Source: Holophagales bacterium (lineage in GTDB: Bacteria > Acidobacteriota > Thermoanaerobaculia > Multivoradales > UBA5704). Taken from it: 64,000 nt of DNA. Where the stretch lies: the NCBI GenBank assembly GCA_031390755.1, contig JANMTS010000105.1:64007-128006 (forward strand), given 5' to 3'. Position numbers and translations under genes: made by a program. Shown one piece after another: positions 5,845 to 46,565 of the stretch. The notes under the pieces were generated by a model. That model saw only the letters and a list, made by a program, of their open reading frames with translations, ran no database searches and was not told where the DNA came from. How positions within the stretch are numbered: position 1 is the stretch's first letter; the number at the start of each line of letters is the position of its first letter.

Positions 5845-6180
5845 GTGTTGCAACTCCGCTCTTCTGCTACAAACAAGGTTATGTTGCAACAAATAAGGAT
5901 TCCCGTTCAACGGGAAAGCTTATCTGTTGCAAGTTAACCTTCTCTGTTGCAGCATAACCTTATCCCGCGGCCGAGAAGGTTATCCTGCAACAAAGAAGGT
6001 TTCCCGATCCTGGGATAAGCTTCTTTGTTGCAACTTGGGTTTATTTGTTGCAGCTTAACCTTCTCCCGAAGCCGCGTAACCTTCTTTGTTGCAACTTAAC
6101 CTTATCTGCCGCGGGATAAGGTCTCCCGAAGACGGGGAAACTTTGTTTGTTGCAGATGGAACCCAGGGGAATGCAAAAAT
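5845..6180. repeat. AT-rich iteron block (TGTTGCA(A/G)C x8 direct +1 inverted; TAACCTT/AAGGTTA inverted repeats; TTATCC/TTATCT boxes)
   Basis: GTTGCA starts near 5847, 5883, 5925, 5945, 6026, 6046, 6087 and 6138, plus one inverted copy at about 5987. Hand-counted GC is about 46% over 5881-6180, against about 70% in the flanks. Confidence 0.85.
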
Positions 6181-27428: not shown

Positions 27429-27455
27429 AGTGGTTGGTCGGTCCCGCCCGGGAGG

Positions 27456-27976
27456 GAAGCCTCCGTCGGGATGACGGATGCTTCCGGCACGGCGCCGGAC
27501 CGAGAAGTCGGCCGCCGGAAGCATCCGCCGTGAACACGGACGTTTCCGGCGTACGACTGAAGCTTCCGGCGCGACGCCGGACCGGTAAGTCAGTCGACGG
27601 GAGCTTCCACCGTGAACACGGACGCATCCGGCGTGACGACTGAAGCTTCCGGCGCGGCGCGGAACCGGGAAGTCGGTCGCCGGAAGCATCCGCCTTGAAC
27701 ACGGACGCTTCCGGCGTACGACTGAAGCTTCTGGCGCGACGCCGGACCTGTAAGTCAGCCGACGGAAGCTTCCGGCGTGAACACGGACGCATACGGCATG
27801 GCGACCGAAGCTTCCGGCGCGGCGTCGGATCGGGAAGTCGGCTGGCGGACGAGTCCGGCACGACTACGGAAGCTGCCGCCATGACGGCGGACGCATCGGG
27901 CAAGACGACGGAAGCTTCCGGAGTGAGGACGGACGCGTCCGGCACGGCGCCGGATCGGGGGAAAGTGCCTTTCCCC
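27456..27976. repeat. tandem array 1 of 41-42-nt palindromic units (alternating A/B types, ~165-nt higher-order repeat) ending in the GGGGAAAG-tgc-CTTTCCCC hairpin
   Basis: GAAGC(T/A)TCC anchors at 27456, 27518, 27559, 27601, 27642, 27683, 27724, 27765, 27807, 27869 and 27911. Block 27518-27682 is repeated at 27683-27848. Confidence 0.9.
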
Positions 27977-37005: not shown

Positions 37006-37186
37006 GAAGGCTCGCCAGTCGGGGGCTGACCTGTCCAGGGTGGGCGCGCTTCCTATACACGTCACTCCCTTGTACGCGAACAAGAACAGGCCGCTTGTTG
37101 CATTCCTCGCTGCTGGAAGCTACATTACCGTAGAAATACGGAAAGGGGGCGTGCATCGACATGCGTGCCTCCAAGCGAGGTTCTTG

Positions 37187-38644
37187 ATGGCCACTGCTCA
37201 GAAGCGAAAGCCCGAGCCGCAAGGGCTGCGCGACTTCCTTGACCGACAGGAGAAGGAGCGCCTTGTCGACATCCTGTTCAACCATGCCCAGGTGGACGAC
37301 CGCCTCCTCCGGAAGTTGACCCTCGAGCAGGGGAAGAGGGGAGGCCGGCAATCCGAGCTTGCCGCGGTGCGCCGCAACCTCGACGCCGCTTTCGACCCGG
37401 GGGATGTCTACTCCTACCGCGAGGTCAGTGGCTTCGCCGACAGGCTCGATGAGGCCGTGAACGACCTGGACGACCTGCTGAAGCAGGGAAAGGCCGAGGA
37501 GGTCATCGATCTGACAGAGCACGCCATCGGCTTGGCGGAGGAGGCCCTGGGGCAGGTGGACGACTCGGACGGAGAGGTGTACGGGGTGTTGGAGCGCCTC
37601 GGGGAGCTTCACCTCAAGGCGTGCAGGAAGGCGAAGCCCGACCCCGAGGATCTGGCGCGCCGACTCTTTGCCTTCGAGCTTCGGACAGATTGGGATTCGT
37701 TCAATGGAGCCGTGGACACCTACGCCGGCATCCTTGGAAAGAAGGGCTTGGTGGTCTACCGCGAGCTCGCTGAGGCCGAGTGGAAGAGGGTTCCGGCCCG
37801 CAAAGCAGGCGACTCTCCGGACTTCGGCGGCCCGCAGTGGCGTCTCGGTCAGATCCTGGAGCGGTTGGCCAGGTCTGCCGGCGACGTGGAAGCTCTGGTA
37901 GCGGTCAAGTCGCACGATCTCTCGCAGCCCTGGTTCTATCTCCAGATCGCCGAGATCTACAAGGACGCTGGAAAGAGAGACCTGGCCATCGAGTGGGCGG
38001 AGAAGGGCATCGGCGCATTTCCCAAGCGGACCGACCCCCGTCTGCGAAGCTTTCTTGCCGGCGAGTACGCGGCACACCGCAGTCACGGAAAGGCGGTCGA
38101 CCTCCTGTGGGCGAACTTCACCGATGCGCCCGGAATCGAGGCCTACAAGGAGCTCAAGAAACTGGCGGAGCGAGCCAGGGCATGGCCGGAATGGCGGGAG
38201 AAAGCCCTCGCCCTCCTCCGAGAGCGCGCGAAGAACGGGACATCCAGACCATCGGCTCCCCGATGGCCGCCGCTCAACCTTGGCCGGGGCCCGGCTTCAC
38301 AGTTGGTCGAGATCCTCCTCTGGGAGAAAAAGGTGGAGGATGCCTGGACATCGGCCCGGCAACTCGGTTGCTCGGAAGAGCTCTGGCTGCAGATGGCCAG
38401 GCTCCGGGAGCTGTCGCACCCGGAGGACTCTCTCGCCGTCTACCAGCGTCAAGCCGAGTCGGCCCTCCAGCAGCCGAGCCCGCGCGGATATGAGGCGGCG
38501 GCGGCTCGCCTGAAGCAGGTCCGGGACGTGATGACGCGTCTGGGGAAGACCCGCGAGCTCGCCGCCTATCTTGCCTCCGTGCGCCTCGCCAACAAGCGGA
38601 AGCGCAATTTCCTGAAGCTTCTGGATGCTGCCAGGCTGGGGTGA
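37187..38644 (+). CDS. hypothetical alpha-helical repeat protein (DUF6880-like?)
   Basis: ORF 36959..38644 trimmed to ATG 37187. 485 aa, helical, with lower GC and different codon usage than the flanks. The family name is only a recollection. Confidence 0.6.
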   Translation: MATAQKRKPEPQGLRDFLDRQEKERLVDILFNHAQVDDRLLRKLTLEQGKRGGRQSELAAVRRNLDAAFDPGDVYSYREVSGFADRLDEAVNDLDDLLKQGKAEEVIDLTEHAIGLAEEALGQVDDSDGEVYGVLERLGELHLKACRKAKPDPEDLARRLFAFELRTDWDSFNGAVDTYAGILGKKGLVVYRELAEAEWKRVPARKAGDSPDFGGPQWRLGQILERLARSAGDVEALVAVKSHDLSQPWFYLQIAEIYKDAGKRDLAIEWAEKGIGAFPKRTDPRLRSFLAGEYAAHRSHGKAVDLLWANFTDAPGIEAYKELKKLAERARAWPEWREKALALLRERAKNGTSRPSAPRWPPLNLGRGPASQLVEILLWEKKVEDAWTSARQLGCSEELWLQMARLRELSHPEDSLAVYQRQAESALQQPSPRGYEAAAARLKQVRDVMTRLGKTRELAAYLASVRLANKRKRNFLKLLDAARLG

Positions 38645-38707
38645 GGCCCGAGGGTCCGGTCAACCTTTCTCCCTCGAAGCCGTAGTCAGTCCAGGAGGTG
38701 TTGACCG

Positions 38708-38908
38708 ATGTGGACCTTTCTGGCCTGGCTCGCGCTCTTCCTTCTCTGTTGGCCACTCGCGCTGCCGGCGCTGGTTCTCTACCCCTTCGTGTGGCTTCTC
38801 TCCCTCCCGTTCCGGCTGGTGGGCATCACGCTGGACGCGGTCTTCGAGCTGCTCAAGGCGGTTCTCTTCCTGCCGTCCCGGCTTCTCGGGGCTCGGAGAG
38901 CATCATGA
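38708..38908 (+). CDS. small hydrophobic membrane protein
   Basis: ORF track, 66 aa, two TM helices. ATGA overlap with the next gene. Confidence 0.45.
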   Translation: MWTFLAWLALFLLCWPLALPALVLYPFVWLLSLPFRLVGITLDAVFELLKAVLFLPSRLLGARRAS

Positions 38909-39342
38909 AGAAGAGCGCATCCCAGGAAGGAAAGTCTCCGTCGCAGTTGATCGACGGGCGGATCGAGGAGCTTGGCGACTGGCGGGGCGAAATGCTCTCC
39001 CGGCTCCGCGCCTTGATCCATCAGGCCGCCCCCGAGGTGGTCGAGGAGTGGAAGTGGGGCGGTCCGGTTTGGTCTCACGACGGATTGATCTGCACCGGCG
39101 AGACGTACAAGAAGGCCGTGAAGCTGACCTTTGCCAAGGGAGCCTCGGTCGAGGATCCCTCAGGACTCTTCAACTCCAGCCTCGAAGGCAACACCCGGCG
39201 CGCCATCGACTTCCCCGAGGGCGCGGCGATCGACGAGAAGGCCTTCAAGGAGCTAATTCGCGCGGCTGTGAAGCTGAACAATCCCGCGGCTGAACTCGGA
39301 GGAGAGGAATCGTCTCCCTGTTTCTCTAAGCGAACCCTCTAA
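38905..39342 (+). CDS. DUF1801 (YdhG-like) domain protein
   Basis: Frame of ORF 38698..39342 trimmed to ATG 38905. ...LGDWRGEMLSRLRALI...EEWKWGGPVWSHDGLIC...KLTFAKGA is the DUF1801 pattern. Confidence 0.65.
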   Translation: MKKSASQEGKSPSQLIDGRIEELGDWRGEMLSRLRALIHQAAPEVVEEWKWGGPVWSHDGLICTGETYKKAVKLTFAKGASVEDPSGLFNSSLEGNTRRAIDFPEGAAIDEKAFKELIRAAVKLNNPAAELGGEESSPCFSKRTL

Positions 39343-39643
39343 CGCTCGCGTCCGGCAAATCGTTGGCCGAACCAAGTCCCACCTGATCTCTCTACGTGGC
39401 GACGACTTCCCCGTGGCGGGAATACCCGCAGTGGCACGATCTCATGGTCATCTGGCATTCAGCGCTTTGCGTTGGCCGCTTGCTCTCTGAAACGGCCATC
39501 GCGGACGCCTTCTGGGATACGTGTATCTGCCCGGATCGAGTCTGCCCCGACCTCACGCCACCCGATTAAGCCTAGAATGGGGTCTTTTACGGCAGAGCGA
39601 AGTTACTCGGTTGCTACGGGTCTGTTTCCCCAATGGAGGATCC

Positions 39644-42490
39644 ATGCTGGAGCCGGGCTTTACGTTTGTCCCCAAGGCAGTGGGAGAGTTGAGGAGTCCT
39701 AGAAAGGAAAGGATCGTCCGGGCTACTTTCTCGCCGGGAGGTCGCCTCTTGGCCGCGACCACGGATGCGGGCCAGATTCTGGTTTGGCGATGGGATGGTG
39801 AGGGTTATTCCCTCTCCGCCGAGAGTAAGACCATCGACGGTGGTAGCGTCAAGCCCTTATGCCTGGGTTGGTCGTCCAGGGCAAGCCTCCTCATCACTGG
39901 CTGGAGCGATGGTCTCCTGCGCGTCTACGACAGCAAGACCCTGGCGCTCGTCCGCCAATCTGAGGACGGCTCCGGCGGCGCCGTGCTCTGCTTGGCGGTT
40001 CATCCTCATAGCGCAGTCTTCGTTTCGGCCGCCGAGGGCGAGGGTGGACTCCGCGTTTGGAACGCAGCCAGGAAGAGGCTCCAGCCCATCCAAGAGGTCT
40101 CCGGCCCCGAGCAACAGACTTGGGGACTCTCCTGGCATCTCAGGGGAGGGCTCCTGGCTTCCTGCGGAGCCGACGAGAGGGTCCGGATCTGGCAGTATGA
40201 GGATAGATCGGACAAGCTTACTGAGAGCCAGCACATCGTCTCTCAGGCAAGGCAGGTCGTCTGGTCTCCCGATGCCGACCCTCTCCTCGCACACATCGAG
40301 CCCGCGGGGTGTCTCAAGCTGTGGCGGACCCGGCAGCGGGGGGCGGTCACCCTTCCTCACTCCGGAGAGGTCACTTCTGTCGTCTTCTCTCCCGACGGGT
40401 CGGTTTGCATTTCGAAGTCTTCCACGGGCCAGCTCCTCCTCTGGAGGTCGCCCTCCGGCGAGTTCCTTGAGTATATCGAGGAGAGAAAGATCACCTCCAT
40501 AGAGCCAGGCGGGCCACCTTTTCCAGCTGAGTTGGCGGTCCGCTCGGTCCAGGCACGGCCAGATTGGAACACTGAGGAACGCTCTGTCGCGCCTTCCGTC
40601 ACCCTTGCCTTCGATCTAGTCAACGCCGACCCGAGCGACCTCTGCCTCCGCATTTGGCGGCTTCGTCGAGAGGAGCGGGAGAGCCAGCCGCCGCCGCCAC
40701 GAGTTCGGGACTACGTTGTCACCTACCCTCAGCCGGGGACGCAGACAGTGGTCCAGGAGTCGATCCGTTTCTCGGGCCTCCAAGACCAAAAGGCCAGGGA
40801 GGATCAACTCGGATTCAAACCCTATGTCGAGGCCGTTGCCGACTTCCTCACCGACGCCGGAACGCGCCCGCCGCTCACCTTTTCGATCGAAGGGGAGTGG
40901 GGAGCTGGAAAGTCCTCCTTCATGGAGCAGGTTAGACAGCGAATCGAAGATAGGGAAGCCGGCAACCGGAAGGGGCCTCGGAGCCGGTTCCAGCGCCTCT
41001 GGCGAGGAAACCAGAGTCACATCCTCTCCTTCAATCTCTGGAGGCACGACAAAGAGGAATCTGTCTGGGCAGCCTTCGTCCTGGAACTCCTGCAGCAGCT
41101 CCGCCGGCAGTGCGGCCTCCCTCGCCGCCTTCTCGGCTGGGCCAATCTTTTCGTCTGGCGCCTTCAATGGACGAATGCTCTCTTCGGTTTTCTCCGGCTC
41201 GCTGCCTGGTTGATCATCATCGTGCTAGGCGCGATTGTCGTCTCGAACCTCCCGACTCAAACGCTGAGGCCCACCCAGACGCCGACTGCCGTGGACGATT
41301 CCACCAAAATACAGGAAGTCATCGATTCAATCGGGGATGCCCTCGACTCGCCCGAGAGCCTAGCGGTGCTCGTCCTCGTGGTTACGCTCCTGCTGAACGC
41401 CAAGCAACTCCTCGGGAACCCTTTGGATCTAGAGATCGGAAAGTACCTACGGTCCTCGGACTGGGAGAACCGAACCGCTTTTGTTGAACGCTTTCACAAG
41501 GATTTCGACCAGATCGTCCAGGCCTATGCTGGAAAAAAGAGGGTCTACGTCTTCGTCGACGACCTCGACCGGTGCGATGTCCCGCGAGCGGCCGACCTCA
41601 TGCAGGCGATCAACCTACTGATCTCCGAGAACCCGAACCTCCTCTTTATCTTAGGAATGGACCGGCAGAAGGTGGCGGCGGGCCTCGCGGTGAAATTCGC
41701 GAAGATCCTTCCCTATCTGCGGACGGAGGCGGTCCCCCAGGGCTACGGCCCGGCTGAGGGCCTGGTCTACGGATACGAGTTCATCGAGAAGTTCATTCAA
41801 ATTCCCTTCCAGCTCCCCCGCCCCTCCCGCGCGGACCTCACGAGATTCCTTCGTTCCCTCAGTCCTTCTGCAGACACCGGTGCCCCGACGGACCTGATCG
41901 ATCCCGGCCAAGAAGAACCGGAGTGGTCCGAAGATCTCGACCAGCCGACGCTTCCTCCTATGCCCCACCCTGCTCAGGATCCAACCGGACCTGGTTCCTC
42001 CATGCACTCCCTTCCGGCCGACAGGACCGTCCCGGCCCAACTGCCGACTCGGGAGGAATTGAGTCTCGCCATCGGCTTCGACTCAGGAATCGTTAGGGAG
42101 ACCGTCCTTCTCGTGGCCCCGGCTCTCGGTAACAACCCACGCCGGATCAAGCAATTCATCAATTCATTCCGGCTTCGTGCCTTCCTCGCCTATCATACGG
42201 GCCTGCTTGCCGGGCGGGAGAGCCATCCAGACAAGGTCACCTTCTACCAGCTTGGCAAGCTGGTAGTGTTGAGCCTGCGCTGGCCCCTCCTCCTAGCCGA
42301 GTTGCACGAGCGCCCCAACCTCCTTCGCAAGCTGGAAGCGGCTGCCACCGATCCGACCTATCTCCCTGGTGATTCGGAAAAGCGTTGGACGAATCAACCG
42401 CGACTCATGGCCCTGCTCCGCTCCCGGAGCTCCTCGCCCCACAAGAACCTGGCCTCATTGGACGTCAAACTCTTGCTGCGGATCTCTTGA
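39644..42490 (+). CDS. WD40 beta-propeller fused to a KAP-family P-loop NTPase (membrane-inserted)
   Basis: ORF 39521..42490 trimmed to ATG 39644 (GGAGGA RBS). About 7 WD-like blades (…GQILVWRWD, DGLLRVYD, GGLRVWN, DERVRIWQ, GCLKLWR, GQLLLWR, CLRIWRL). Walker A GEWGAGKSSF (~40893-40919). Two TM helices are inserted before Walker B VYVFVDDLDRC (~41543-41575). Confidence 0.85.
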   Translation: MLEPGFTFVPKAVGELRSPRKERIVRATFSPGGRLLAATTDAGQILVWRWDGEGYSLSAESKTIDGGSVKPLCLGWSSRASLLITGWSDGLLRVYDSKTLALVRQSEDGSGGAVLCLAVHPHSAVFVSAAEGEGGLRVWNAARKRLQPIQEVSGPEQQTWGLSWHLRGGLLASCGADERVRIWQYEDRSDKLTESQHIVSQARQVVWSPDADPLLAHIEPAGCLKLWRTRQRGAVTLPHSGEVTSVVFSPDGSVCISKSSTGQLLLWRSPSGEFLEYIEERKITSIEPGGPPFPAELAVRSVQARPDWNTEERSVAPSVTLAFDLVNADPSDLCLRIWRLRREERESQPPPPRVRDYVVTYPQPGTQTVVQESIRFSGLQDQKAREDQLGFKPYVEAVADFLTDAGTRPPLTFSIEGEWGAGKSSFMEQVRQRIEDREAGNRKGPRSRFQRLWRGNQSHILSFNLWRHDKEESVWAAFVLELLQQLRRQCGLPRRLLGWANLFVWRLQWTNALFGFLRLAAWLIIIVLGAIVVSNLPTQTLRPTQTPTAVDDSTKIQEVIDSIGDALDSPESLAVLVLVVTLLLNAKQLLGNPLDLEIGKYLRSSDWENRTAFVERFHKDFDQIVQAYAGKKRVYVFVDDLDRCDVPRAADLMQAINLLISENPNLLFILGMDRQKVAAGLAVKFAKILPYLRTEAVPQGYGPAEGLVYGYEFIEKFIQIPFQLPRPSRADLTRFLRSLSPSADTGAPTDLIDPGQEEPEWSEDLDQPTLPPMPHPAQDPTGPGSSMHSLPADRTVPAQLPTREELSLAIGFDSGIVRETVLLVAPALGNNPRRIKQFINSFRLRAFLAYHTGLLAGRESHPDKVTFYQLGKLVVLSLRWPLLLAELHERPNLLRKLEAAATDPTYLPGDSEKRWTNQPRLMALLRSRSSSPHKNLASLDVKLLLRIS

Positions 42491-42567
42491 TCGGCCTGAT
42501 GTCGTCCCCAGGAGAAGAACGTGGAATTGAGACGACTTGACTATCGCGGCATCGACTCGCTCGGCGT

Positions 42568-42852
42568 CTACAGGCCGCCGCATTCCGCTGCCCGCTCGAA
42601 GCTGACCAGTCTCCGCACGAGAGCGTTGTATCGGGAATGAGCCGAGTCTGTTCCCGAGCTGGCGAGGAGCTCGTAGAGGCGGTGCTCCGCAGTCGGGATG
42701 ACCTGGTCGGGCACGGGGAGGCCGATCCGTCGGAGTCGGGGAGCCCCGATCGACACCAGCAGGGCGGGGATCGACTCGATGCCACGAACGAGATCGGCGA
42801 GCCCTTCCTCCACCAGATCCCCTCCCGGCAATGCGTGCAGATTCAGAGCCAT
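42568..42852 (-). CDS. hypothetical 94-aa protein
   Basis: ORF 42568..43212 trimmed to ATG 42852-42850 (MALNLHALPGG...). The upstream part of the ORF is the repeat array. Confidence 0.45.
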   Translation of the reverse strand: MALNLHALPGGDLVEEGLADLVRGIESIPALLVSIGAPRLRRIGLPVPDQVIPTAEHRLYELLASSGTDSAHSRYNALVRRLVSFERAAECGGL

Positions 42853-42928
42853 TCCGAGAGTATAGGGTCCGCGAACTGCCCAGGGGCCGACCACGTCCAG
42901 CGGGAGTCTGTCCGCGACGTGCAACCGA

Positions 42929-43440
42929 GGGAAAGGCGCTTTCCCCGCATCCGGCGCCGCGCCGGACGCATCCGCCGTGATGCCGGAAGCTTCCGCCGTC
43001 ATGACGGACGCGTACGGGACCACGACGGAAGCGTCAGCCGTCATGCCGGACGCGTACGGGACCGCGCCGGAAGCTTCAGCCGTCACGACGGACGCGTACG
43101 GGACCGCGACGGTAGCTTCCGCCGTCATGACGGACGCGTACGGGACCGCGCCGGAAGCTTCAGCCGTCAAGCCGGACGCGTACGGGACCACGACGGAAGC
43201 TTCCGCCGTCACGACGGATGCAACGGGGCCGCGACGGAAGCTTCAGCCGTCACGACGGACGCGTACGGGACCACGACGGAAGCTTCAGCCGTCACGACGG
43301 ATGCAACGGGACCGCGACGGGAGCTTCCGCCGTCATGCCGGACGCGTACGGGACCACGCCGGAAGCTTCCGTCGTCATGCCGGATGCGTACGGGACCACG
43401 GCGGAAGCGACCGGCGCCGTGCCGGAGATCGCTGGAAAGG
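42929..43440. repeat. tandem array 2: ten 41/42-nt units GGAAGCTTC(C/A)GCCGTCA(T/C)GACGGACGCGTACGGGACC(A/G)CGAC plus degenerate end units; terminal hairpin GGGAAAG-gcg-CTTTCCC at the left end
   Basis: Unit starts at 42985, 43027, 43069, 43111, 43153, 43195, 43236, 43278, 43319, 43361 and 43403. Two units are 41 nt and the rest 42 nt. Confidence 0.92.
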
Positions 43441-43538
43441 TGTGCGGCTGGGATGGGCCGACCTCTTCCGGGGTCGCTCGTCGCCCGAGATGTCCTCCGG
43501 GGAGGCCAGAGTTGCGGGGCCTGATATCCTTCGGGGCC

Positions 43539-46500
43539 ATGCGCAACATGACGCGGTTTCTTCTTTCGCTCCTCCTCGTTCCTGCCTTCGCGCAGGCCGA
43601 GGTTCTCCCCTGCATGCCCTGCGCGGGCGTCCGGTTCGAGCCCGTTCAGTCCCTTCCCGTAGCGGCAGCCGAGACGTTTCGGCCCGGGCCGATCGCGGAA
43701 GCTCAGCCGTCCTCCGCTCCGATGACGATGTCGAACCCGGCCGAGCTTCCGGGTCTGCTGGCTCAGGCGAAGCTGGAGAAGGGGAGTCCCCTCTTCGTGG
43801 CCTGGGATGTCCAGCTCGACGGGACGGCGGGTCCGGATGCCAATCCAGGGGACACGGCGGCCCGCATCGTCGAGGCCGGCGGCACGCCCTGGATCTCCCT
43901 GGTGTTTCACACTCCGGCTCCGGTCGCCCAGAACGCCGAGCGGCTCCAGGCCGAGCTGCGCGCCGCGGTCGCGGTGGCCGCAGCGGCTCCTCCCCAGGCT
44001 TGGTTCCAGATCGTCTGGCGGCCCGACGGCCTGGAGGGGCAGCCGGAGGGGCAGATCGCGGCGGCCGACTATGCGTTCCTCCTGAAGCGCGCGGCCGTGG
44101 CGATCACCGGCGCCCGCTCCGAAGTTCGCGTGGCGACCGGTCCCCTGCCCGCCGATCCGGCGTTCCTGGAGGCGTTCTACGGTGAGGAGGTCACGGCCTA
44201 CCTGGATGCGGTCGCCCTTCAGCCCGCGGCGGCCGAGGCTCTGACCAGGGCTTCGGAGGCTGTCGAGCGGCTCGATCCGGGCCGGCCGGTGGTGCTTGAT
44301 GCCGTGCCCATGCCGGCCGCCGCGGGCGAGATCCTGTCGGACTCCGCGCGCAACGCGGTGCGCGGCATCGGATTGACGCTGTTCCGGACCACCCTGGTCA
44401 ACGGCCAGACGCTCTCGCCGCTCGCGCTGCTGGCCCGGGAATTCGCCGGCGACGTCTCCTACGGCGCTGGCGACGTGCCCACCGGCGCCCAGGAGGCGTG
44501 GACGTTCGTGCGCGGCAAGGATTACTCGTTGCGCGTCATCGCCCTGGCTCCCCCGGGTGCGAGCGAGCTGGCGCTGCGGTTCTCCGATCCCTATCTGCGG
44601 CGGCCGACCCGGTTCCCGTACACGTTCGACAAGGTCGGGGCTCCGCAGGGAGACGCCCAGGAGAAGGGGCTCGTGGTGCGGCTCGACAACCCCGGCCGCG
44701 TGGCGGTGATCGGGCTTGAACGAGCCACCGCCGCCGAGCGCGAGGGGGTCGAGGAGAAGGTCGACGTGGCCACGGCGCGCGAGATGCCGGTCGAGGAGAT
44801 CCTCCGCCGGCTCCAGGCGTTCGAGGACGCGCAGGACCGCAAGCTCGATCACTACCAGGCGATCAACACCACCCACCTGCGGTTCCAGCCGGCGGCAGGC
44901 ACGCAGACCTTCGAGGCCACGCTCCAGGGACCGTTCTTCGTGGGTGACACGACGGGCTCGGACTGGGCCTGGCAGACGCTCTACGTCAACGGCGTGAAGT
45001 GGCGCAGCAAGTCGATCCCCGAGATCCCGCTCGTGCAGCCGGAGAAAGCTGCGGCCCTGCCGCTCCAGATCCTGTTCACCAAGCAGTACCGCTACCGGCT
45101 GCGCGGCACCGACACGGTCGACGGCCGCGACGCCTGGGTGATCGACTTCGCTCCGGCCGGACCGGGCGAGCCGGGCAAGCTCTACCAGGGCAGCGTCTGG
45201 GTCGACCGGCAGATCTACGCCCGGCTGCGCACCCGCGCCGTCCAAGTCGGCCTGGAAGGCGAGGTCATCTCGAACGAGGAGACGATGACCTACTCCCCGA
45301 TCGACGCCCAGGGCCAGCCCGCGCCTTGGTCAGGCGAGAGCTACGTGCTGCCGCTGCACATCGTGGCCCAGCAGATCCTCTCGGTTGTGAATGCCACGAC
45401 GGTCGTGGAGCGCGAGACCGTGCTCTCGGAGGTGAAGGTCAACGCCGCGGACTTCGACGAGAAGCGCGCCGCGATCGCCGACACCGACGTGACCATGGTG
45501 CGCGACACGGACAAGGGGCTGCGGTATCTGGTGAAGGAGGAGGGCTCCGAGGAGCGCGTGGTCAAGGAAGGGTTCGACAAGAGCAAGCTCTTCCTGGCTG
45601 GCGGCGCGTTCTACGACGACGCGCTCGACTACCCGCTGCCGCTGGCGGGCGTGAACTACTTCAACTTCGACTTCCGCGGCACGGGCAAGCAGCTGAACGT
45701 TTTCTTCGCCGGCGCGCTGCTCACCGCCAACGTGGCCGAGCCGCGGCTCTTCGGCAGCAAGTTCGACCTCGGCGCGCAGGCGTTCGCCGTGGCGGTTCCG
45801 TTCAGCGACAGTCTTTACCGGGACGGCGAGGAGATCACCGGCGAAGAGGTGGACGTGCGCACCGCGAAGCTCGGCGTGAAGCTCGGCCGGCCGCTCGGGA
45901 GCTTCGTGAAGATCGGGCTCGACTACGACGTCCTCTTCCTCACCTACGGCGACACGGACAACACGGCCGACGGCTACGTGCCGCCGACCGACAACCAGAC
46001 CCACTCCCTGGAAGGCACGTTCAGCTTCTCGCGCGGCGGCTACGGCTTCCGCGCCAATGCGGGTTTGAGCCGGCGCTCGGAGTGGGAGCCCTGGGGCTTC
46101 GCGGGGAACCCGGACTACAGCGCGGACAAGGACGAGTTCATGCGCTGGGGCGCCCGGCTGAGCAAGAACTGGTATCTGCCGAAGTTCCAGAAGATCGGCG
46201 CCGAGGTCGACTATGTCTCGGGCTCGGACCTGGACCGGTTCAACAAGTACCAGTTCGGGTTCTTCGGCAGCACGCGCGTCCACGGCTATCAGTCGAACCG
46301 GGTGCGGGCGGAAGAAGCGCTGGCCGTTCACGGAACCTACGGCTTCGAGATCGGCCAGGCGCTGCGGCTCGACGCGGTGGGCGACGTGGCCTGGGCCACG
46401 GACGAGGCGACGGGGCTCGACAACGAGATGCTGGCGGGCGTGGGCATCGCCGGGACGTTCATCGGCCCGTGGCAGACGGTGGTGAACCTGGACGTGGGCG

Positions 46501-46565
46501 TGCCGGTGGCGGGGCCGGACGACGGGTTTGTGTTCTACGTGGTGTTCTTGAAGTTATTCAAGTAG
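43539..46565 (+). CDS. large outer-membrane protein: unknown N-terminal region + LolA/outer-membrane-lipoprotein-sorting-like module + Omp85/surface-antigen-type beta-barrel
   Basis: ORF 43218..46565 trimmed to ATG 43539 (MRNMTRFLLSLLLVPAFAQA, a signal peptide). ...DGRDAWVIDFAP...KLYQGSVWVDRQIYARLR is LolA-like. The C-terminal 350 aa are beta-barrel-like and end in F-K. Confidence 0.7.
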   Translation: MRNMTRFLLSLLLVPAFAQAEVLPCMPCAGVRFEPVQSLPVAAAETFRPGPIAEAQPSSAPMTMSNPAELPGLLAQAKLEKGSPLFVAWDVQLDGTAGPDANPGDTAARIVEAGGTPWISLVFHTPAPVAQNAERLQAELRAAVAVAAAAPPQAWFQIVWRPDGLEGQPEGQIAAADYAFLLKRAAVAITGARSEVRVATGPLPADPAFLEAFYGEEVTAYLDAVALQPAAAEALTRASEAVERLDPGRPVVLDAVPMPAAAGEILSDSARNAVRGIGLTLFRTTLVNGQTLSPLALLAREFAGDVSYGAGDVPTGAQEAWTFVRGKDYSLRVIALAPPGASELALRFSDPYLRRPTRFPYTFDKVGAPQGDAQEKGLVVRLDNPGRVAVIGLERATAAEREGVEEKVDVATAREMPVEEILRRLQAFEDAQDRKLDHYQAINTTHLRFQPAAGTQTFEATLQGPFFVGDTTGSDWAWQTLYVNGVKWRSKSIPEIPLVQPEKAAALPLQILFTKQYRYRLRGTDTVDGRDAWVIDFAPAGPGEPGKLYQGSVWVDRQIYARLRTRAVQVGLEGEVISNEETMTYSPIDAQGQPAPWSGESYVLPLHIVAQQILSVVNATTVVERETVLSEVKVNAADFDEKRAAIADTDVTMVRDTDKGLRYLVKEEGSEERVVKEGFDKSKLFLAGGAFYDDALDYPLPLAGVNYFNFDFRGTGKQLNVFFAGALLTANVAEPRLFGSKFDLGAQAFAVAVPFSDSLYRDGEEITGEEVDVRTAKLGVKLGRPLGSFVKIGLDYDVLFLTYGDTDNTADGYVPPTDNQTHSLEGTFSFSRGGYGFRANAGLSRRSEWEPWGFAGNPDYSADKDEFMRWGARLSKNWYLPKFQKIGAEVDYVSGSDLDRFNKYQFGFFGSTRVHGYQSNRVRAEEALAVHGTYGFEIGQALRLDAVGDVAWATDEATGLDNEMLAGVGIAGTFIGPWQTVVNLDVGVPVAGPDDGFVFYVVFLKLFK

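Follow-up and report, generated by a model that had tools for sequence, protein, structure and literature searches.

A WD40 propeller fused to a KAP-family P-loop NTPase with a predicted membrane hairpin, a candidate NLR-like signalling ATPase in a lineage-specific island of a Holophagales genome

The subject of this analysis is a gene in a 64,000-nucleotide stretch of DNA, referred to as the window, from a Holophagales bacterium, a soil Acidobacterium with a Thermoanaerobaculia genome (NCBI GenBank assembly GCA_031390755.1, contig JANMTS010000105.1, positions 64,007 to 128,006 of the forward strand). Coordinates are counted from the first letter of the window. The gene, designated WD40-KAP, encodes an N-terminal WD40 beta-propeller joined to a KAP-family P-loop NTPase. 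Together with a DUF6880 gene, a DUF1801 gene, a small convergent open reading frame (ORF) and a repeat array, it makes up a 6.5-kb segment (37006–43538) that is lineage-specific by synteny and low in G+C at third codon positions (GC3).

In the ORF listing, the WD40-KAP reading frame occupies 39521–42490 on the forward strand, and all features of the protein given below lie on that strand. The GTG at 39521 was dropped as a start codon in favour of the ATG at 39644, because a ribosome-binding site, GGAGGA (39635–39640), can be read from the sequence 3 nt ahead of the latter; the resulting ORF (39644–42490) specifies a product of 948 amino acid residues. The public gene call for an identical protein (P0001) has the same length, and the identical protein with its flanks is present on an independent Logan assembly and sequencing run (L001). 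The gene is real and the fusion is well supported.

The Pfam KAP_NTPase model (PF07693) matches residues 391–845 over profile positions 1–289 of 293, at E = 4.3e-34 and with 118.6 bits, well above the cut-off of 20. The N-terminal half of the module (residues 381–512; 40784–41179) contains a WRHDK motif and the Walker A sequence GEWGAGKSS (residues 417–425; nt 40892–40918). The C-terminal half of the P-loop core (residues 591–744; 41414–41875), where the predicted local distance difference test score (pLDDT) of the AlphaFold model is mostly above 85, contains a GMDR motif and the Walker B sequence VYVFVDDLDRC (residues 634–644; nt 41543–41575). Between the two halves lie two predicted transmembrane helices (residues 513–536, 41180–41251; residues 573–590, 41360–41413), whose Kyte–Doolittle hydropathy, calculated with a 19-residue window, peaks at 2.5 and 2.0, respectively; they are the sole segments of the protein with values above 1.6, and both are long helices in the AlphaFold model. 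Walker A, the two hydrophobic helices inside the NTPase domain and Walker B were found where the initial annotation of this DNA had placed them. KAP proteins are defined by a Walker A of the form GxxxxGKS/T, a Walker B of the form hhhhDDxDR and two or four transmembrane helices inside the P-loop domain. The match to the hidden Markov model (HMM), the intact Walker motifs and the inserted predicted hairpin of this protein agree with that definition in every respect, and by sequence the protein is a KAP-family P-loop NTPase whose catalytic motifs appear intact.

The P-loop core is followed by a Pro-rich insert (residues 745–805; 41876–42058) that is predicted to be disordered (pLDDT below 50) and by an all-helical C-terminal bundle (residues 806–948 and the stop codon; 42059–42490) with pLDDT values of 85–95, in which the sequence NPRRIKQF begins at residue 831 (NPRR, residues 831–834). 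Both elements had been described at the outset as a linker and a C-terminal domain, and both are real. The Pro-rich segment, though, is not a separate linker but lies inside the KAP domain, since the Pfam match spans it, and the part of the bundle up to residue ~845 falls within the same match.

The residues expected to be catalytic are conserved in the clade formed by the relatives of this KAP module. In 52 aligned clade members, G417, W419, G420, G422, K423 and S425 are invariant, and so are D639, D640, D642, R643, D673, P832 and R833; R674, N831 and R834 are nearly invariant (≥90%). In nearly all of these sequences, too, the Walker A and Walker B motifs are separated by a hydrophobic hairpin. 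The AlphaFold model of the full protein, computed from the 52-sequence alignment, has a mean pLDDT of 73 and a predicted template modelling score (pTM) of 0.58, with a confident KAP core and C-terminal bundle; the KAP module modelled by itself reached 77 and 0.73, respectively. The best fold match of the module was RdrA, the ring-forming ATPase of RADAR (E = 1.3e-4), followed by ORC/Cdc6, at low TM-scores of 0.2–0.4, and no PDB chain matched the module in a sequence search.

The acidic loop connecting the two transmembrane helices (residues 537–572; 41252–41359) contains 2 positive and 7 negative charges, whereas the 20 residues preceding the first helix contain 3 positive and 0 negative ones. 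No transmembrane segment lies ahead of Walker A, and the charges flanking the helices conform to the positive-inside rule; on these grounds the propeller and the two halves of the ATPase are predicted to be cytoplasmic and the loop of ~36 residues to be exposed outside, in the periplasm. The charge distribution thereby gives a predicted answer, the cytoplasmic side, to the question of which face of the membrane the propeller occupies, which had been listed as a check.

The propeller spans residues 1–345 (39644–40678). The Pfam WD40 model (PF00400) matches in 4 stretches with a score of 66.7 bits (cut-off 27), and numerous other propeller models match too; the Pfam HMM search therefore backs both of the domain assignments that had been made by eye, KAP and WD40. 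A Foldseek search of the PDB with the propeller gave seven-bladed WD40 proteins as top matches (E ~1e-11, target TM-scores ≤0.70), namely RACK1, WDR5, TBLR1, beta'-COP and a Thermomonospora WD40 protein. An HMM score above the cut-off is thus found together with a closed multi-blade propeller fold, and the models indicate that the fold has seven blades. The initial annotation had counted about seven blades, each ending in a tryptophan signature. The Foldseek and AlphaFold results agree with the number, but an x-W-[RNQ] ending is present in only six of the seven (residues 45, 136, 180, 224, 264 and 335), the remaining one reading LRVYD near residue 93. By sequence, the propeller is closest to WD40 arrays found in bacterial nSTAND1, NACHT and NB-ARC proteins. 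A Pro/Gln-rich, low-confidence linker (residues 346–380; 40679–40783; pLDDT below 50 for residues 343–367) joins the propeller to the KAP module. Comparison with P0121, a probable ortholog from the representative library with the full architecture, gave 39% identity in the propeller and 55–56% in the KAP core and C-terminal region; the propeller therefore diverges faster than the ATPase.

To place the fusion among its relatives, an exhaustive HMMER search was made with the KAP part only. It retrieved 14,342 representative clusters with E-values up to 1e-3; 5,760 of these remained at a limit of 1e-10 and 913 at 1e-30, and each of the 150 top-scoring representatives exceeds 326 bits. These closest 150 comprise 24 bare KAP modules, 60 proteins with an N-terminal extension only, 42 with a C-terminal extension only and 24 with both; given the 24 bare modules, the chassis can stand alone. 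A Pfam domain census was made on two subsets, 42 members with long N-terminal and 36 with long C-terminal extensions (78 members). The N-terminal extensions contain TIR_2 in 12 cases and WD40 in 5, while the C-terminal ones contain GUN4 (7), TIR_2 (4), FGE-sulfatase (3) and Lcl_C (2), and also pentapeptide, TPR and REC domains. TIR_2 is the commonest partner (16 of the 78), and the first homolog search added fusions of LRR, Clp_N, NACHT-like and REC domains to KAP. Of the 150 closest representatives, 6 (~4%) have a WD40 region N-terminal of KAP, which makes the architecture uncommon, as had been supposed. A rough neighbour-joining tree built from the KAP module places WD40-bearing members at four positions at least, with nearest neighbours that have no WD40, and this scatter suggests that WD40 fusions arose by repeated shuffling. 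Judged by these domain assignments, the clade appears to behave as an immune-receptor-like chassis with swappable partners.

The relatives of the KAP part are patchily distributed over Omnitrophota, Dehalococcoidia, Phycisphaerales, Opitutaceae, Acidobacteriota and two archaeal methanogen/methanotroph genera. The archaeal modules, from Candidatus Methanoperedens (L007) and Methanosarcina (L008), are 34–41% identical to the bacterial one, a degree of similarity implying that the chassis has passed between domains of life. A scan of GTDB genomes and metagenomes with the full protein found no WD40-KAP ortholog and only relatives of the KAP part, with 29–41% identity. A variant with an additional REC domain, REC-WD40-KAP, is encoded at three loci (L003:985–5068, L004:2–3917 and L005:1719–5781). 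The histidine-kinase-like protein of 271 residues associated with this variant has an H-box, IEHEIxxPL, and scores slightly below the HATPase_c cut-off; in L005, the REC-WD40-KAP copy adjoins a ParE/Phd toxin-antitoxin pair.

The G+C content of the island is 0.60–0.65 compared with ~0.69 elsewhere, and GC3 drops to 0.73–0.81 across the DUF6880, DUF1801 and WD40-KAP genes and the small ORF from 0.88–0.95 in the flanking genes, bearing out the low-GC island that had been noted. Orthologs of the genes on either side of the island bear Thermoanaerobaculia (Acidobacteriota) names. Upstream of the island lies a block of lysine-biosynthesis genes, lysC, dapB, dapA and dapD. Collinearity of the window with three relatives, whose orthologs are 82, 80 and 74% identical, begins at ~43.3–43.5 kb and extends to 56 kb; upstream of where it begins, these relatives have nothing in common with the window, and no KAP gene is found there. 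Two others keep the order dapE-asd-lysC-dapB-dapA-dapD, and in these the sequence after dapD differs in each and contains no DUF6880, DUF1801 or KAP gene. Because synteny stops after dapD and restarts at ~43.3–43.5 kb, and because the segment is missing in five relatives, the stretch from ~37.0 to 43.5 kb is lineage-specific and is framed by two conserved blocks; WD40-KAP is accordingly not a core gene, which would have spoken against the initial annotation. No tRNA gene was found in the whole window.

The DUF6880 gene (37187–38644, forward strand), assigned by Pfam, also matches the PADLOC profile PDC-S62 with 100 bits over profile positions 98–559 of 566. PADLOC PDC entries are "guilt-by-embedding" candidates and not validated systems; with this match beside WD40-KAP, the island holds two adjacent defence-candidate genes. 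On the other side of WD40-KAP, the small ORF (42568–42852, reverse strand, possibly extending to ~43000) converges on it across a 78-bp gap and has no Pfam or PADLOC match. An N-terminal extension of this ORF would be translated repeat, since the longer frame enters the tandem array.

That array (42946–43408), which was expected from the initial annotation to adjoin the gene, forms the right edge of the island and coincides with the synteny breakpoint. Tandem Repeats Finder describes it as a palindrome-rich unit with a period of 42 bp in 10.2 copies with 87% matches. A related palindrome-rich unit of ~42 bp makes up a second array at 27455–27954, and the two share the core CGGAAGCTTCCG, which has 19 matches against 0.47 expected, every one within the two arrays. 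The repeat array was also considered as a structured RNA, but its fold was no better than that of shuffled sequences (z = -1.0) and no Rfam match was obtained, and as a CRISPR-like element, but it is a plain 42-bp tandem repeat with no spacers. The arrays may represent a recombination or insertion hotspot or a repetitive extragenic palindromic (REP)-like element.

Immediately downstream of the island, the gene at 43539–46565 (forward strand) encodes a protein of ~1008 residues that matches neither Pfam nor PADLOC models and whose N-terminus, MRNMTRFLLSLLLVPAFAQA, resembles a signal peptide. Hundreds of Thermoanaerobaculia orthologs with 60–82% identity exist, always followed by EAL, REC and PAS-histidine-kinase genes, and judged by these sequences the protein is a conserved, class-specific one. 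In a related Thermoanaerobaculia genome (L033:22300–22949), a TIR_2-TPR protein with NLR-like features is encoded ~9 kb downstream of this conserved gene. A further repeat, a 101-bp tandem unit in ~1.9 copies at 5875–6068, is markedly richer in A+T than the surrounding genome of 69% G+C.

From these results, we consider, with a probability of roughly one half, that WD40-KAP would be a stand-alone signalling ATPase anchored in the inner membrane and working by NLR-like logic, most likely as an anti-phage or anti-invader sensor. The resemblance to NLR and STAND proteins, which had been raised from the domain order, gains strength from the fusion of the same chassis to TIR, FGE-sulfatase, GUN4, LRR, TPR and pentapeptide partners and from the reported ability of KAP to displace STAND (PMC8195603). 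Further points in favour of this reading are the fold match of the KAP module to RdrA, the faster divergence of the propeller and the scatter of WD40 fusions in the KAP tree, the low-GC3, lineage-specific location beside a second defence candidate, the patchy spread that extends to archaea, and the Walker-B-dependent phage defence reported for KAP fusions (PMC13552941). In the proposed mechanism, a protein of phage origin, or a host protein that has been altered, would act as the trigger by binding to the propeller. The KAP module at the membrane would thereby be freed or stimulated to oligomerise in a nucleotide-dependent manner and to turn over ATP. The output would probably be delivered by the membrane module itself, as a change in permeability or ion flux or as ATP depletion, because this protein has no enzymatic effector domain of the kind that relatives carry in TIR. 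Such outputs are likened to those of PifA and Tmn, two defence NTPases of the P-loop type described as membrane-associated: PifA depolarises the membrane and lets nucleotides leak out, while Tmn is a decamer whose solenoid arms bind the phage protein RIIB and whose ATP hydrolysis is coupled to Mg2+ export (PMC13001434). A more specific version, in which the protein would be a self-contained membrane analogue of an NLR whose propeller recognises a phage protein and gates an ATP-driven KAP oligomer with the transmembrane hairpins as the effector, a conduit for ions or small molecules, is conceivable but doubtful. If it were true, sensor, switch and executioner would reside in one polypeptide on a non-STAND scaffold, and the KAP clade would be a broad "membrane NLR" family of bacteria and archaea with swappable sensors and effectors.

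Several observations weigh against a sensor role in immunity. The defence role of the WD40-KAP protein itself is one that we infer, and oligomerisation and the membrane output are conjectural. Because the N-terminal site more often holds an effector (TIR) in relatives, the WD40 region could be an adaptor and not a sensor, and its beta-strand blades are interrupted in the AlphaFold model by a low-confidence third blade (residues 109–168). The genes scanned from 33 to 50 kb include no integrase or transposase, and neither these nor classical defence genes (restriction-modification, CRISPR, Abi) were found in the island or in the examined neighbourhoods of clade members. On long contigs, these members are solitary amid housekeeping genes, frequently accompanied by small ORFs without a Pfam match. 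No clade relatives were found in IMG/VR viral contigs or in phage records, and two distant ones only were found on plasmids (22–24% identity); these collections thus lend no support to the mobile setting that the initial annotation had associated with KAP NTPases.

Matches to catalogued defence proteins are also partial. PifA, by which the F plasmid excludes T7, and QatA of the Qat system belong to the same Pfam family as this protein. The NCBIfam QatA model, however, scores 87.4 bits against an equivalog cut-off of 600 (matches 74–87 bits), and the neighbours, DUF6880, DUF1801 and the small ORF, include no QatB, QatC or QatD. The PADLOC PifA profile scores 48.8 bits with its best stretch confined to residues 383–483, and PifA is reported to have no transmembrane helices (PMC13001434), whereas a hairpin is predicted here. 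A match to PADLOC PDC-S20 (58.3 bits in two short stretches, the best at residues 606–678 against profile positions 160–231 of 464) is partial and below the family threshold. Lastly, the REC-WD40-KAP relatives (P0005 and P0006; ~1095 residues) overlap the upstream gene for the soluble histidine-kinase-like protein, an arrangement that resembles a two-component system with a membrane KAP ATPase as its output and that is just as compatible with ordinary signal transduction.

WD40 propellers are generic scaffolds, and the alternative that survives best, although we consider it unlikely, is a membrane scaffold or signal-transduction NTPase with a housekeeping function and no role in immunity, like eukaryotic Kidins220/ARMS. 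The WD40 region would then recruit cellular partners to the membrane, and KAP would control the assembly and disassembly of the complex. The solitary position of clade members amid housekeeping genes, the poor representation of the clade in phage, viral and plasmid collections and the translational coupling of REC-WD40-KAP to the kinase-like gene, expected of two-component outputs, all count in its favour, as does the 2004 proposal that membrane-associated P-loop NTPases regulate the assembly of membrane complexes, in the form summarised in the Tmn preprint (PMC13001434). Against it, the gene has a foreign composition and a lineage-specific occurrence, with no conservation in related Thermoanaerobaculia, and the chassis is spread patchily over phyla and archaea and fused most often to TIR, and also to FGE-sulfatase- and GUN4-type domains typical of conflict systems. 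The REC-coupled examples, moreover, belong to one close lineage (83% identical partners) and are not independent, and the KAP fusions tested so far are anti-phage (PMC13552941).

It is considerably less probable that WD40-KAP is one component of a multi-gene island system, in which the propeller would dock a separate partner (the PDC-S62-like DUF6880 protein, the DUF1801 protein or the small ORF product) that KAP regulates. All four genes do lie within the low-GC3 island, the DUF6880 protein matches a defence candidate, and N-terminal adaptors recruit effectors encoded nearby in Aravind-type systems (PMC8195603). But a tblastn search of all island neighbours against 27 loci of KAP relatives found none of them beside KAP, except in the identical strain, and both the orientation of the genes and the gap of 300 bp ahead of WD40-KAP, which holds a ribosome-binding site of its own, suggest a separate transcription unit. 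Decay of a horizontally acquired gene that has no current role, compatible with the foreign composition, the lineage-specific occurrence and the failure to find partner genes, is very improbable given the intact 948-codon ORF with a strong ribosome-binding site, the retention of every clade-invariant catalytic residue, the identical protein in an independent sequencing run and an ortholog that keeps the full architecture at 39–56% identity.

WD40-KAP is a convenient test case for the sensing and action of KAP defence proteins, since its sole appended module is a well-understood protein-binding propeller, and with no enzymatic effector it asks directly whether the ATPase and hairpin chassis is itself the effector. 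The census of the clade, in which one KAP chassis is combined with TIR, GUN4, FGE-sulfatase, LRR, TPR, WD40, REC and other domains in bacteria and archaea, supports the view that modular immunity of the NLR kind arose on at least one P-loop scaffold that is membrane-embedded and distinct from STAND. KAP proteins were shown to defend against phages only in 2025–2026. The novelty of the finding is lower than the initial annotation estimated, since computational work had already described KAP proteins as a modular class, part of which has by now been validated. For now its practical importance is modest, and a specialist would not be surprised.

Models of STAND NTPases fell short of their cut-offs (NPHP3_N, 18.6 against 24.8 bits; AAA_16, 26.5 against 32.6 bits), and no NACHT or NB-ARC match was obtained. 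WD40 proteins of the STAND/NLR type, such as NACHT-WD40, nSTAND1-WD40 and Apaf-1-like proteins, share the logic of a repeat domain coupled to an oligomerising P-loop NTPase; in contrast, the NTPase here is of the KAP family and predicted to be membrane-embedded, and the WD40 region is N-terminal, so that the order is reversed. RADAR was set aside, as the fold match to RdrA is weak (TM-score 0.2–0.3) and no RdrB deaminase gene is found in the neighbourhood.

Tmn shares several design features with WD40-KAP. It, too, has two transmembrane helices inserted in the P-loop domain, and it is a single protein in which repeat (solenoid) sensor arms are combined with ATP turnover tied to a membrane output. 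However, Tmn has no WD40 region, its decameric assembly and Mg2+ export are not known to hold for WD40-KAP, and an assignment to the Tmn/YobI family (PF20693) was rejected, since the YobI-ATPase model scores 22.3 bits against a cut-off of 27 over residues 568–664 only.

The likeness to the KAP family itself extends to the full-length match to PF07693, Walker A, the DDLDR Walker B, the helical NPRR region, the inserted hairpin and the patchy phyletic spread; the N-terminal seven-bladed WD40 region is what this protein adds. The KAP NTPases were reportedly predicted in 2004 to be membrane-associated switches in conflict or signalling. Fusions of KAP to repeats had already been noted in that year (Aravind, Iyer, Leipe, Koonin, as cited in PMC13001434), and a literature search for "KAP NTPase" together with "WD40", which did not extend to the 2004 KAP paper, found no paper describing a WD40-KAP fusion. 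The statement that no functional description exists consequently holds for WD40-KAP but not for the wider class of KAP fusions, which was described in 2004 and 2026 (PMC13552941).

Within that class, a KAP ATPase can displace the STAND NTPase in conflict systems of the effector-NTPase-FGS type (Kaur, Iyer, Burroughs, Aravind, eLife 2021; PMC8195603), and KAP NTPases have been listed among the targets of diversity-generating retroelements (Doré et al., 2024). WD40-KAP resembles the KAP-for-STAND systems in its central NTPase with swappable flanking effectors or sensors, and its clade includes TIR, FGE-sulfatase (FGS), TPR and LRR fusions. Unlike them, it has no recognisable effector or adaptor, FGS domain or diversity-generating retroelement, its repeat domain is N-terminal and not C-terminal, and its host is not a known multicellular bacterium.

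The experimentally validated relatives are EF_KAP and three KAP fusions from gut metagenomes, which confer phage defence in Enterococcus (PLoS Biol 2026; PMC13552941). Compared by description, their appended regions lie at the C-terminus and have no known fold, in contrast to the N-terminal WD40 propeller here, and the EF_KAP group is found in Firmicutes beside small serine recombinases, whereas no recombinase was seen in the present island. In other respects the designs coincide: each validated protein is the product of a single gene, has a transmembrane helix inside its KAP NTPase domain and carries an appended region that is needed for function, and the defence conferred by EF_KAP is lost upon mutation of Walker B or deletion of the appended region (PMC13552941).

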